The notes beneath the pieces were generated by a model. The model was not told the origin of the DNA. It made no database searches and was given only the letters and a program-made list of their open reading frames with translations. A DNA stretch of 25,088 nt from positions 1 through 25,088 of the forward strand of contig JBHLON010000043.1 in NCBI GenBank assembly GCA_048940445.1, in the 5' to 3' direction. Positions 6,035 through 18,605 of the stretch are shown here, in pieces (positions within the stretch are counted from its first letter, which is position 1; every line of letters starts with the position of its first letter). The DNA comes from Promethearchaeota archaeon (GTDB lineage: Archaea; Asgardarchaeota; Lokiarchaeia; Sigyniarchaeales; SOKP01). Made by a program: the position numbers and the translations under genes.

Positions 6035-7102
6035 CTAACCAATACTAAAGTAAATATAAGCAATTATTATTGTTAATGCATTATAAAATCCATGTGTTAT
6101 AACTACCGCAATTAAATTCTCTTTTCTCCAATAAAACAATAAGCCTAAGAGAAGTGAAATGGCAAAATAAGGGAAGAAATTAAGTAAGAAAGATATTAAG
6201 TACTCGATTGGAGCACTATAAGCTGTTACAAATATACCAATTAGGTGGATAAATGAAAAGACAATTGCTGTTATAATAATCCCACCTACTTTTCCAATAC
6301 TCCTTACCAATCCTTTTTGCATAAATCCTCTAAACAGTATTTCTTCAGATGGACCTATTATTACTATCATTGTTATGATTAGCAATATTATAGCTAATAC
6401 GTCTGAATTAGCAATAATTACATCTACTTCATTTAATGAACCTCCAGCAGAGTATACGATGTCTATTCCAAAAATTAATTCTAAAAAGAGTTGAATAAGT
6501 ATTGAAACAAAAAAGACTAAAAAGAAAGCTACAATAGCGAACCCTAAACCAATAAAAACTTCTTTCATAATTCTGGAGGTACTATAGCCTCTAGTAGTAA
6601 ATCCCAAAAGAGCAAAGCGGTTGCTTATTTTAGAATTTTGAAGATATTTTCCAATATACAAAATTGGTACCAACATAAATATTAATTCAATAAATGAAGA
6701 AAAAATTACAAAATATGGATTTAAGATAATATTAACTAGATCATCTAAGTTTGCTACTGATAACATAAAGAAAAATGTAATAATTAAAGCTATGAAATTC
6801 ATTAGAATAAAAGCAGCTATTGGAATTCCTATTGATACTAGACTACTCCAAAGTTTCTTTTCACCCAGATCCAATATTTCAATTTCAGATATTTTTATAA
6901 AATCTCGTCTTTTATAATAAAAAGGTTGAACTATTTGCGTATTGGATAATTTTGAACTCATTGTATACTTAAAGGTTTCAAAATTAAAACCGCACTTCAT
7001 ACAAAATTTCTGTTTATTTATTTCGGGTAATCTTGTCCCGCATGAAGGGCAATATATCCACTTTTTTTTATTATCTGAATTTTCTTTATTTTCTCCATTC
7101 AT
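6035..7102 (-). CDS. Zn-ribbon-fused CPBP (Rce1/CAAX protease-like) intramembrane glutamic protease
   Basis: N-terminal CPSC...CMKC; multiple TM helices; EEILFRG, FSFIH and HGFYN motifs. Confidence 0.9.
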   Translation of the reverse strand: MNGENKENSDNKKKWIYCPSCGTRLPEINKQKFCMKCGFNFETFKYTMSSKLSNTQIVQPFYYKRRDFIKISEIEILDLGEKKLWSSLVSIGIPIAAFILMNFIALIITFFFMLSVANLDDLVNIILNPYFVIFSSFIELIFMLVPILYIGKYLQNSKISNRFALLGFTTRGYSTSRIMKEVFIGLGFAIVAFFLVFFVSILIQLFLELIFGIDIVYSAGGSLNEVDVIIANSDVLAIILLIITMIVIIGPSEEILFRGFMQKGLVRSIGKVGGIIITAIVFSFIHLIGIFVTAYSAPIEYLISFLLNFFPYFAISLLLGLLFYWRKENLIAVVITHGFYNALTIIIAYIYFSIG

Positions 7103-16073: not shown

Positions 16074-16574
16074 TTATAGATGAAAATCCATTTCAATGTG
16101 GCATATTTCTGCTGTTTGAAGCCGATTTTTGGAAATATGAGGATCAATTCCTCGAGCGTATGAGATTGCTCCTGTTAATATACCACCAACGGGACAGGCT
16201 GTATTTCCCTCGAGATCATACCCTCCAATTCTTTTAGGGCAAATTAAGCATTTTTGCACAACTACTTTTACATTTTCATTAGATACTTCTACATCTAAAT
16301 CTTCAGCGAGATTAATAACTGTCATTAAAGAATTAATTAATTGCTCATCGCTGTCTTTAACATTCACAACTTTATTATCTAACATTGCCTTCATAAGCTC
16401 TCTTCCTATCCAAATGCTTAATGAATCCATAGCATCCTGAGTGGAAACACCAAAATCTTTATTTAAAATAAAGTCTCTTGTTCTTATTAAACCATAACCT
16501 AATCCAATTATTGTTCTATTTAGATAATGTGACTCATTTTTCTTATCTTTTCTTAAACTTTTAAATATTCTCAA
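16074..16574 (-). CDS. V4R/MetOD1-like (Bet3-related fold) Cys-containing domain protein
   Basis: WIGREL helix, VVVQKCLIC, TACPVGGILTGAI and terminal EICHIEMDF strand. The TTG start overlaps the upstream stop (TTGA) and follows GAGGAG. Confidence 0.7.
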   Translation of the reverse strand: MRIFKSLRKDKKNESHYLNRTIIGLGYGLIRTRDFILNKDFGVSTQDAMDSLSIWIGRELMKAMLDNKVVNVKDSDEQLINSLMTVINLAEDLDVEVSNENVKVVVQKCLICPKRIGGYDLEGNTACPVGGILTGAISYARGIDPHISKNRLQTAEICHIEMDFHL

Positions 16575-17158
16575 TAGATATCTCCTCTTAAGTTAATATT
16601 TAAATCATTAAAATTAGATTTCTCCTTCTCATATCTTATCTTTTCTTTACTTATAATGCCTCTTTCAACGTATTTATCAGTTATCTTTAAAAGAGAATCT
16701 TGATCGATTTTTCTGTTTAAAGCTTTTTCTAAACCACTGAGTTTTTGCAATAATACTGCTACACTAATTCTATTAAATTTTGCTATTTGAAGTATTATCT
16801 GTTTCTCAAGGACATTAGGAAATTGTTGCTCCTTTATATAATCTAAATCATAATTGGAACTCAATATTAATTTTTCTTCTGAAGACATTTTGTCAAAGAA
16901 ATCAGAATTTATTGGTTCTCCAGGAATATGGTTGTTTTGCGTCTTATACTCTCTTCTTTCTAATATATTGTCAATCGATTCTATTCCCTTTACTTCGTAA
17001 TTTCTATCTACATATATAATTAATGATTGGTTACAATGTTCTATCAAAAATTGAACTGGAAACCTTTCAGATTGTTCTATAAAATCCCTATTCAAATCAA
17101 GAACTATCTGTTGATTACATATTGGACAAATAGCTTTTGAAGTAATGTTCTGAGGCAT
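16571..17158 (-). CDS. Zn-ribbon-like N-terminal domain + winged-helix-like C-terminal domain shared with the adjacent GTPase
   Basis: CPIC...FP...HC...IYVDRNYEVKG N-terminus; residues 82-167 align without gaps to residues 335-420 of the 451-aa protein. Confidence 0.8.
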   Translation of the reverse strand: MPQNITSKAICPICNQQIVLDLNRDFIEQSERFPVQFLIEHCNQSLIIYVDRNYEVKGIESIDNILERREYKTQNNHIPGEPINSDFFDKMSSEEKLILSSNYDLDYIKEQQFPNVLEKQIILQIAKFNRISVAVLLQKLSGLEKALNRKIDQDSLLKITDKYVERGIISKEKIRYEKEKSNFNDLNINLRGDIY

Positions 17159-17249
17159 TTACGACACTATTAATTATATAACTATTTGATTATTAATTTA
17201 AATAGTATAGAAACTGTTAAAGGAATAGTGAGAATACTTATATTTAAAT

Positions 17250-18605
17250 CTAATATTTTGAATAATTATCTTTTTTCTGTATTATTTTTAAGTTTTTAAA
17301 GGATTCAAGATCTCTATCAAACTTTAAATATTGCTGTTTCACTTGACCTTTGTGAACATATTTTTCAATTATTTTTAAAATAATATTTCTATCAATAGTT
17401 CGATTTAATGCTTTTTCTAAAGGAGTTAGTTTGCTGATTAATACTGCTAAACTAATTTCCTTATATTTAGCAATACTATTAATTATACTTTTCTCTAATA
17501 CATTTGGAAAATCATCATCTTTTATAGATTTACAATCATTATTGCATATAAATATTATTCTCTCATCTTCAGTTAGATCCTTAAGAAAATTGTCAGTTAT
17601 AGGCACAGCGGTTATTCTCTTGCCATAATCGCGAAAAAGTTGATCAGTTAGATATCGTAAAACTACTTCTATACCTTCTCCTGTCAATATGGAGGTTTCA
17701 AAGAAGGTACACTCATATTCTAAAGCTAATTTTTCTGCTTTTTCTTTTATGTGTTCTCTACTTCTTCCAAGATCAATTTTATTACCTACAATTAGATAGA
17801 GAATATCTTTGTTATCAATGAATTGACGTGCTTCTGCTATCCAATCTTCGATTTTGTCCAGAGTTTCTTCTCTTGAGTAATCGAACATAATTAATATAGC
17901 ACTAGCATAATTAAAAAAGTACTTTCGCACTTTACCAAAACTTTTAAGACTTGACAAATCAAAAAAGTTGATTATACATTTATCCCCACTTTCTATTTCA
18001 ACTTGTTTTTCTATTAAAGACACACCTATGGTAGGATAATAGTATTCGATGAAATCATTACTACAAATCTTACGTACAAAAGCAGATTTTCCTACAGCTT
18101 CAGACCCAATTATCAATACATTTTTGCTTTCTGAGTTTAAAATTAATTTAGCTTCTTCATCTATTTTTGGAAAACTGCATGGAACTTCATGTTGACTTAA
18201 AATTAAAGATATTTTATCTGCGATGATATGAGTATATGGTACGTACAAATCTAAATTAGAATAATTATTCATGATTAACACTAACAAAGCAGCTGTATTT
18301 TCACCTAATTGAATATAGAATAATCGGAAATTATCCATATTGAAAGATCCACTTCCAATTTCTGACTGGGTTAGTCTTTTTATCCTATTTAGAGTTTGAT
18401 CTAAGAGACTTGTTATTCCACCGATTAACTCATCATCAAATTTCTTTACTGATTTTTTAGCAATTATAAAACCATCAAAATCAATAACTAGAACTGCTAA
18501 TAAATCTGGTATTGTTTGTATGAAATCATCTAATATCGTTTGTATATTGGTCGATGTACTCATAATCCCCGTTACCTCGAGTATTGATCTTATATAAATA
18601 TTCAT
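17250..18605 (-). CDS. Roadblock/LC7 + Rab-like small GTPase + winged-helix-like fusion protein
   Basis: Roadblock pattern LLAVLVIDFDGFIIA; G1 GSEAVGKS, G2 YPTIGV, degenerate G3 DLSSL, G4 GNKID and G5 ETSIL. The true start may be ATG18563. Confidence 0.88.
   Translation of the reverse strand: MNIYIRSILEVTGIMSTSTNIQTILDDFIQTIPDLLAVLVIDFDGFIIAKKSVKKFDDELIGGITSLLDQTLNRIKRLTQSEIGSGSFNMDNFRLFYIQLGENTAALLVLIMNNYSNLDLYVPYTHIIADKISLILSQHEVPCSFPKIDEEAKLILNSESKNVLIIGSEAVGKSAFVRKICSNDFIEYYYPTIGVSLIEKQVEIESGDKCIINFFDLSSLKSFGKVRKYFFNYASAILIMFDYSREETLDKIEDWIAEARQFIDNKDILYLIVGNKIDLGRSREHIKEKAEKLALEYECTFFETSILTGEGIEVVLRYLTDQLFRDYGKRITAVPITDNFLKDLTEDERIIFICNNDCKSIKDDDFPNVLEKSIINSIAKYKEISLAVLISKLTPLEKALNRTIDRNIILKIIEKYVHKGQVKQQYLKFDRDLESFKNLKIIQKKDNYSKY

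Follow-up and report, generated by a model that had tools for sequence, protein, structure and literature searches.

The 25,088-nucleotide (nt) contig JBHLON010000043.1 of a Promethearchaeota archaeon (assembly GCA_048940445.1) was analysed over its entire 25 kb and is called the window below. It belongs to a genome of 3.64 Mb with 30% GC, whose relatives carry the label Promethearchaeota, which is equivalent to Lokiarchaeia. An earlier note, made from the letters of the window alone, had drawn attention to three genes on the minus strand, here named A, B and C, and had read them as a signalling switch built around a small GTPase. The module to which these genes belong is real and conserved, and it has apparently not been described before. 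Its features are as follows (window coordinates, strand, description).

17250-18605, minus: gene A, open reading frame (ORF) of 451 amino acids (aa); fusion of Roadblock, Rab-like GTPase and winged helix (wH)
18189-18563, minus: Roadblock/LC7 domain of A; profile links to Pfam-verified Robl_LC7 proteins, direct Pfam match weak
17640-18119, minus: Ras/Rab-like G domain of A; Pfam Ras, E = 3.8e-29; G1 GSEAVGKS, Thr of G2 kept, G3 DLSS, G4 NKID, G5 ETSI
17949-17960, minus: degenerate G3 of A (DLSS, with neither the Gly nor the following catalytic Gln); motif reading and comparison of orthologs
17325-17573, minus: wH of A, a single-origin copy of the B-type wH of Lokiarchaeia; motifs PN-x-x-EK and EKALN kept
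16571-17158, minus: gene B, ORF of 195 aa; Asgard zinc domain, linker and wH; candidate adaptor
16973-17149, minus: zinc domain at the N-terminus of B, with C11, C14, H41 and C42; module that is mobile among Asgard genomes, next to a small GTPase gene in some lineages
16637-16885, minus: wH of B; predicted to touch the C dimer with residues 114-127 and 142-150
16571-16587, minus: B/C junction with a ribosome-binding-like site (GAGGAG) and a stop/start overlap (TTGA)
16074-16574, minus: gene C, four-Cys V4R/Bet3-fold protein of the MJ0207/MetOD1-like branch; 166 aa, TTG start

The ORF coordinates bear out the layout described in the earlier note: the three genes are co-oriented, A and B are separated by 91 nt, and B and C overlap by the 4 nt TTGA. 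The GAGGAG is placed 7 nt 5' of the start of C, and the B/C junctions of several relatives show similar overlaps or gaps of 0-1 nt. The start of gene A is probably at 18563, in line with the starts of its orthologs, which gives a protein of 437 aa. Scans for sigma-70 promoters and terminators gave nothing clearly beyond chance, the models being bacterial and the host archaeal. In the cultured strain MK-D1, the RNA run is a 12-kb contig over genes of both strands and can thus not show co-transcription. Pfam and NCBIfam searches left B and C unnamed.

By searching 400 Asgard genomes, the C family was found in 39 genomes and on one contig filed under another phylum, which gives 40 loci. The genomes comprise 16 Lokiarchaeia (including MK-D1), 12 Thorarchaeota, seven Heimdallarchaeota, one Hodarchaeota and three Borrarchaeum. 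A wH gene lies immediately upstream of C and on the same strand in 39 of the 40 loci, spanning four Asgard classes, with one copy being split by a stop codon; at the lone exception, an IS605-type transposase gene interrupts the locus. It is the pair of wH and V4R protein, not the trio, that forms the conserved core, and the GTPase is optional. What is fused before the wH varies, being the zinc domain in Lokiarchaeia, Thorarchaeota and Hodarchaeota, a longin domain in Borrarchaeum, and a short Cys-rich piece or nothing in Heimdallarchaeota. A GTPase is present within the module at 24 loci, namely as the A fusion in nine Lokiarchaeia, directly upstream in 11 Thorarchaeota and the one Hodarchaeota, and with one zinc-domain gene in between in the three Borrarchaeum. 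A Roc-LRR-TIR gene beside a broken B (genome G199, L074:5388-6905) and a convergent GTPase (G047) were excluded from these counts. A simple FAD-motif scan for a prenyl-reductase gene beside the module gave matches at 2 of the 40 loci and none in the window, so that such a neighbour does not characterise the family as sampled. A, B and C occur together in nine genomes of Lokiarchaeia from two genera and in two gene orders (five A-B-C, four B-C-A). The trio is therefore syntenic in relatives, as had been expected, but the proposal of a self-contained three-gene switch holds only in part, since the invariant unit is the wH and the V4R protein and the GTPase accompanies it at 24 of the 40 loci only. 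The occurrence of the module is patchy (4 of 42 genomes of the genus of the window), which suggests that its history includes loss or transfer. In genome G092 (L146:2601-3863), an IS605/TnpB-like gene was observed upstream of a truncated C gene. Moreover, genome G023 (L012:8293-8784) carries a second, diverged copy of C after A, and genome G070 (L156:4831-5241) a second wH gene after C; both would fit a hub with several plugs or sockets.

The model of C (predicted local distance difference test score, pLDDT, 83.8) consists of a helical layer and a four-strand sheet that superpose on V4R and TRAPP structures. The best structural match is the Bet3/TRAPP structure 2CFH_A (Z 12.1, root mean square deviation (rmsd) 3.1 over 141 residues), followed by another TRAPP subunit (Z 11.8), the Thorarchaeota TRAPPC3 protein (7YH2; Z 11.6, rmsd 3.9, 142 residues), PoxR (Z 10.6) and MJ1460 (Z 9.1). 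Four Cys residues (C109, C112, C127 and C158) are invariant in 26 sequences and form a candidate zinc cluster. Together, the structural matches and the invariant Cys residues confirm the assignment of the 166-aa four-Cys protein to the V4R/Bet3 fold. By contrast, the specific link to Bet3 of TRAPP that had been drawn earlier was not upheld. None of the 26 members of the C family matches Pfam TRAPP (PF04051) or V4R at E 0.05, the genuine PF04051 matches in Asgard genomes are genes other than C, and MJ0207-type archaeal V4R proteins are far closer to C (E 1e-23 to 1e-32, for proteins outside the profile) than are Asgard TRAPPC3-like proteins (E 7e-5 or worse). The nearest sequence relatives of C carry Pfam MJ0207. 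Judged by its sequence, C belongs with the MJ0207/MetOD1-type archaeal V4R proteins and is not a TRAPPC3 ortholog. A search of PDB sequences with the C profile gave nothing significant. The MK-D1 member of the family is WP_147665075.1 (DSAG12_03938), which bears the UniRef name of a methanogen output domain protein. The N-terminal tail of C (window 16541-16574) is disordered, basic and aromatic; such tails are present in most members from Lokiarchaeia, Thorarchaeota and Heimdallarchaeota and are not basic in the genus of MK-D1. The tail may be a membrane anchor.

The C-terminal domains of A and B share 42% identity across about 120 aa (E 3.6e-25), and the window genome holds exactly two copies of this domain, in A and in B. 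The model of B shows a small beta-rich N-terminal domain, a disordered linker and a winged helix, whose elements are helices at 116-128, 133-147 and 153-165, an intervening strand at 130-132 and a wing strand at 169-173. The structural match list of the shared domain is made up of wH proteins; the best match is a GATOR1 chain (8FW5_C; Z 8.8, rmsd 2.4, 72 residues), and the matches to the GATOR1 chain, PerR, Fur and a SEA-complex chain all lie within about one Z unit. The N-terminal module of B has five strands and one helix with C11, C14, H41 and C42. B had previously been described as a zinc ribbon joined to the C-terminal domain of A. The shared domain stood up to analysis, but the classic ribbon did not, as the module combines a CxxC with an adjacent H41-C42. 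The positions of its His and Cys residues differ between lineages. Foldseek with the B model found no match at E 0.001, the fold search with the zinc domain gave no clear match, and PDB sequences searched with the B profile yielded nothing significant. A search for longer B fusions found none, which is weak evidence. The small members from Heimdallarchaeota (81-97 aa) consist of the wH alone. For a 259-aa wH protein from Heimdallarchaeota, a reading of the N-terminus as uDENN/longin was rejected because the resemblance was by eye only and had no profile support.

The B profile matches 287 of the 400 Asgard genomes, chiefly through the N-terminal zinc domain, which identifies the latter as a mobile module. 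In the Hodarchaeal module, the GTPase and the zinc domain are members of a distinct subfamily in which the GTPase gene and the zinc-domain gene lie side by side, and this pair was also found without wH or V4R protein in a Thorarchaeota genome (E 3e-25) and on another contig of the window genome. In Borrarchaeum, GTPase-zinc pairs are duplicated. The recurrence of such gene pairs suggests that B is an adaptor, with the zinc domain facing the GTPase and the wH facing C. On contig C48 of the window genome (G000:C48, L256:3770-6651), a GTPase gene is followed by the gene of a 739-aa protein that starts with a B-type zinc domain; this GTPase falls into one group with that of the Hodarchaeal module and with a Thorarchaeota GTPase that has a similar zinc-domain neighbour.

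A complex of two C chains and two copies of B 86-178 was modelled. It scored 0.77 (runs 0.77, 0.70 and 0.80), whereas the best control reached 0.38. The mark of 0.77 was reached by 58 of 80 solved pairs and 2 of 110 mismatched pairs, a calibration that applies only roughly to the present model, given own alignments and four chains. The runs have at least 84% of contacts in common, with a partner pLDDT of at least 81. The wH of B is thus predicted to dock on the C dimer, where it would touch both C subunits, with B 114-127 and 142-150 placed against C 31-36 of one and C 46-58 of the other. The wH contact motifs of B are kept invariant in A, and a euryarchaeal relative for which no wH neighbour was found lacks most of the segment C 31-42. 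The shared domain had been taken as the element that couples the other two proteins to the GTPase; a coupling role is predicted by the model, which covers C as the partner.

The GTPase of A matches Pfam Ras (PF00071) over residues 163-322 with 101.8 bits against a cut-off of 21.6. Its motifs G1 (GSEAVGKS), G2 (YPTIG) and G4 (NKID) conform to the consensus (GxxxxGK(S/T), Thr and NKxD, respectively), but DLSSL and ETSI, which the earlier note does not mention, fail the consensus of G3 (DxxG(Q)) and G5 (SA(K/L)). All five genomes with the order A-B-C have DLSS and a bulky residue in G5, whereas the four with the order B-C-A have DLGG or DLSG in G3 and ETSC or ETSA in G5; the partner GTPases of Thorarchaeota have DFGGQ. 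In Ras, the Gly and Gln of G3 serve gamma-phosphate sensing and hydrolysis, and substitution of the G5 Ala speeds nucleotide exchange. The loss of the G3 Gly and the G5 Ala suggests that the window copy of A could be a poor hydrolase, a fast exchanger or a pseudo-GTPase. None of the A proteins has a Cys within its last 12 residues that could form a C-terminal prenylation motif. The Roadblock domain is weak by direct Pfam search, as three of nine orthologs match below the cut-off (best E 0.063). In its first round, the N-terminal profile picked up a roadblock-type protein that stands alone (E 1.2e-5), and upon iteration it reached Pfam-verified Robl_LC7 (PF03259) proteins. A single-sequence profile comparison of the A N-terminus with a Roadblock gave no match, while iteration did, and a search of PDB sequences with this profile found nothing significant. 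The architecture of Roadblock, small GTPase and extra C-terminal domain is thus substantiated by the Pfam Ras match, the iterated Roadblock profile and the wH. Roadblock-Rab fusions as such are ordinary, with five others in the window genome, and the Asgard Roadblock-GTPase fusion class has already been published (PMC10933270). One contig of the window genome (G000:C32, L150:2598-5858) encodes tandem Roadblock-Rab proteins of 522 and 521 aa, each extended at the C-terminus by roughly 190 aa; the two possibly form a heterodimer.

The wHs of A form one clade that is nested within the B wHs of Lokiarchaeia (100/99), so that gene A has a single origin, in Lokiarchaeia, in which the wH of B was duplicated onto a Roadblock-Rab protein. 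The module GTPases as a whole occupy four positions in the GTPase tree, and a forced single clade was rejected by the approximately unbiased (AU) test (p-AU 0.0013). The careful tree and the AU test cover 45 chosen rows; a tree of 175 rows is a quick tree only.

These observations can be combined in a model, to which we give a little better than an even chance, in which A and B meet, or compete, on the C dimer as their docking hub. C would be a zinc-stabilised homodimer of the V4R/Bet3 fold; its seam would offer two equivalent sites, and at each of them a wH "plug" would dock through its PN-x-x-EK and EKAL(N/G) motifs. The wH would bring its fused cargo to the hub, that is, the zinc domain (B), the Roadblock-GTPase (A), the longin domain (Borrarchaeum) or none (some Heimdallarchaeota). 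A and B would occupy a single C dimer jointly or be rivals for it, provided that the wH of A binds C as that of B is predicted to do. If both sat on one dimer, the zinc domain of B would lie beside the G domain of A, which would make a scaffolded small-GTPase switch, and the zinc domain may then contact the GTPase. An input at the cavity or the Cys site of C (a small ligand, a metal or a redox signal) would alter the assembly and hence the state of the GTPase, and the basic and aromatic N-terminus may tether the hub to a membrane. Ligand sensing by C, such a tether and an action as guanine nucleotide exchange factor (GEF) or GTPase-activating protein (GAP) are all conjectural parts of the model. 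The existence of longin-wH fusions and of one longin-C fusion speaks for the hub. The latter (P0018, L080:5240-6136) has a longin domain fused straight to a C-family V4R protein, and no wH gene was found nearby; its longin domain is closest to that of the Borrarchaeum longin-wH protein, as if a covalent link had replaced the wH plug.

Several observations weigh against the docking hub. The module lacks a GTPase at 16 of the 40 loci, MK-D1 included, and in three Lokiarchaeia genomes (99, 88 and 81% complete) an intact B was found and no C. Only about 2 of the 11 zinc-domain genes of the window genome adjoin a GTPase gene, and most are far away. The complex model covers a single pair, the wH of B with C, and the columns of the predicted interface show no excess of conservation over the remaining ones (wH, p 0.23; C, p 0.94). 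Furthermore, Asgard genomes hold 30-65 small GTPases each, so that some GTPase adjacency is due to chance, and the lineages are only partly independent. The loci without GTPase and this abundance, as well as the degenerate G3 and G5 of A in five genomes, would also suit the idea that wH and V4R protein do form a unit, whose task involves no GTPase, that its GTPase neighbours and the A fusion are incidental and come from a large, shuffling pool of GTPases, and that the window A is a decaying pseudo-GTPase. We consider this to be quite unlikely because A is intact and conserved in nine genomes, two genera and two gene orders and keeps G1, G2 and G4. Moreover, unrelated module GTPases were found in four lineages (a rough, post hoc estimate of the chance for 4 of 7 lineages is 3e-5 to 4e-4), and the other two V4R-like genes of the window genome also adjoin GTPase genes (background 6%).

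In a further alternative, the pair is a split regulator of the MsvR type, in which the wH binds DNA, C senses a ligand or the redox state and retains the wH or sets it free, and the GTPase of A tunes DNA binding. In methanogens, MsvR links DNA binding to Cys residues of its V4R domain (PMC3729527), and the predicted C-wH complex is also compatible with such a device. Among the structural matches of the wH model, PerR, Fur and MarR domains rank about level with the others (Z 8.3 and 8.0), six of 36 members weakly match HTH_24 (best E 4e-4), and the wH domains of Lokiarchaeia are net basic, mostly +3 to +6. However, the helix that would have to recognise DNA has no net charge or a negative one (0 to -4 in most members outside Lokiarchaeia) and varies at its exposed positions, about 20 wH members stop right after the first wing strand, and the complex model buries the H2-H3 turn in the contact with C. 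The fusion partners of the wH are Roadblock-Rab and longin, and a palindrome scan upstream of 26 loci gave 3 as compared to 2-4 in shuffles, although this was a simple scan of AT-rich regions. A split regulator is therefore unlikely in our view. The structural ranking of C, with Bet3/TRAPP and the Thorarchaeota TRAPPC3 protein ahead of PoxR, points in another direction, namely to C as an ancestor of Bet3 that joins Roadblock or longin proteins and serves membrane traffic as the GEF of a Rab-like GTPase. The longin fusions, the basic, aromatic N-tail of C and the GATOR1 chain as the best match of the wH, tied with PerR, can be read in the same way. This explanation appears quite unlikely: in addition to the missing Pfam TRAPP matches, a separate Asgard TRAPPC3-like family with its own partners barely matches C, those partners do not match the module wH, and the partner GTPases of the module are not orthologous. 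C is closest to MJ0207/MetOD1-type V4R proteins, one of which sits in a euryarchaeal cluster of Roadblock, DUF2226, V4R, GTPase and MinD genes, so that the link between V4R proteins and GTPases is not specific to Asgard archaea. TRAPP is not known to have a winged-helix adaptor. The TRAPPC3-like (PF04051) genes of Thorarchaeota and Borrarchaeum (L250, L251 and L252) each adjoin the gene of a longin/Roadblock protein with a wH-looking tail, a pairing that parallels that of wH and C. The euryarchaeal cluster, of Hydrothermarchaeota type and a single example (L259:1355-4697), encodes a Roadblock protein, DUF2226, a 165-aa protein, the MJ0207-type V4R protein, an MglA-like GTPase and MinD/ParA.

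The docking hub has to be compared with several known systems. Asgard Roadblock-GTPase and TRAPPC3/V4R proteins (Tran et al. 2024, PMC10933270; PDB 7YH2) resemble A in architecture and C in the four-Cys fold. According to the same study, the Asgard TRAPPC3/V4R proteins are zinc-bound homodimers with cavities, and the MK-D1 genes for GTPases do not, as a rule, share an operon with genes of the Roadblock, longin or TRAPPC3 type; no wH partner is mentioned in its text, and WP_147665075.1 differs from both MK-D1 proteins that were modelled there (PMC10933270). The eukaryotic TRAPP core (Bet3/TRAPPC3, C5 and C6 with longin subunits; a GEF for Rab1/Rab11) shares with the module a Bet3-fold dimer scaffold and links to longin/Roadblock proteins and Rab-like GTPases. 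Unlike TRAPP, C has no TRAPP sequence membership and keeps the zinc Cys residues, the linkage would be made by wH plugs, and the module GTPase is fused to a Roadblock domain. The actinobacterial conservon or Mfp operon likewise brings together a small GTPase, a Roadblock protein, a protein-contact helix-turn-helix (HTH) fold and a sensor, namely the GTPase MfpB, the DUF742 HTH-type GEF MfpC, the Roadblock GAP MfpD and the kinase MfpE (PMC11343762, PMC4316618). In the module, the sensor would be a V4R dimer instead of a histidine kinase, the GTPase is Rab-like and not MglA-like, and the Roadblock domain is fused. DUF742 is not among the families listed for 36 B proteins, and no kinase gene was found in the window module. 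MsvR (PMC3729527) and the MetOD1/MJ0207 V4R proteins (PMC5847659) resemble the module in having an HTH-type domain and a Cys-containing V4R domain. In contrast to the single-chain MsvR, wH and V4R protein are encoded by separate genes in all loci examined, and the module wH lacks a charged recognition helix, is often without a wing and is fused to GTPase or longin modules. Finally, NPRL2/NPRL3 of GATOR1 and the Asgard NPRL2-like family (bioRxiv 10.1101/2020.10.19.343400) have a longin domain and a C-terminal wH and are thus similar to the Borrarchaeum version only; the match to 8FW5_C, being tied with PerR and Fur, is a structural lead only. At the sequence level, the module wH does not match the longin/Roadblock-wH proteins that accompany TRAPPC3-like genes in Asgard archaea. 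The module works like a conservon or a TRAPP-type arrangement, with a GTPase, a Roadblock or longin domain and a scaffold or sensor, but qualifies as neither.

Asgard archaea have dozens of Rab-like GTPases, Roadblock proteins and V4R/TRAPPC3 proteins, and the layout of the genes makes it difficult to match regulators with their targets (Tran et al. 2024, PMC10933270). The module offers matched sets of small soluble proteins from four lineages, an interface at residue level and a member pair in the cultured MK-D1. If the predicted binding is true, a Bet3-fold protein would scaffold a GTPase switch in a prokaryote; if the link to GTPases is false, a new partner of archaeal V4R sensors would still have been found. 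A bolder generalisation, which we regard as doubtful, is that Asgard archaea use a general "plug and socket", in which a non-DNA-binding wH on a Bet3/V4R dimer wires GTPases and Roadblock, longin or zinc regulators to a ligand-sensing, membrane-attached hub and the zinc domain of B serves as a hitherto undescribed GEF, GAP or effector module. If this were true, it would be a prokaryotic scaffolded complex of GTPase and regulators that unites the modules of TRAPP (Bet3 fold) and GATOR1 (longin-wH). All constituent domain types are known, and membrane traffic is not indicated by the data. No description of the wH-V4R pair or the trio was found in the searchable literature, which was mostly non-subscription, the supplementary tables of Asgard surveys lying outside its scope.

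The window genome contains two further clusters of GTPase and V4R-like genes. One of them (G000:C59, L253:252-1653) consists of co-oriented genes for a Rab-like GTPase, a thioredoxin-like protein of 97 aa and a V4R-like protein of 159 aa; the opposite strand carries a TBP-like gene and a further Rab-like gene. The third such cluster of the genome (G000:C3, L254:790-3114) encodes, also in co-orientation, a 336-aa protein, a V4R-like protein of 198 aa and a Rab-like GTPase; the 336-aa protein combines a longin/uDENN-looking N-terminus with an Arf/Rag-like GTPase. In the window itself, A-B-C is flanked by genes for an amidase, an unnamed protein and an aldehyde dehydrogenase, which are not retained beside the module in relatives. 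Elsewhere in the window, unrelated to the module, positions 1605-2009 and 6035-7102 encode a protein of the beta-flower family (PF21785) and a zinc-ribbon protein with an Rce1-like membrane protease domain (PF02517), respectively.

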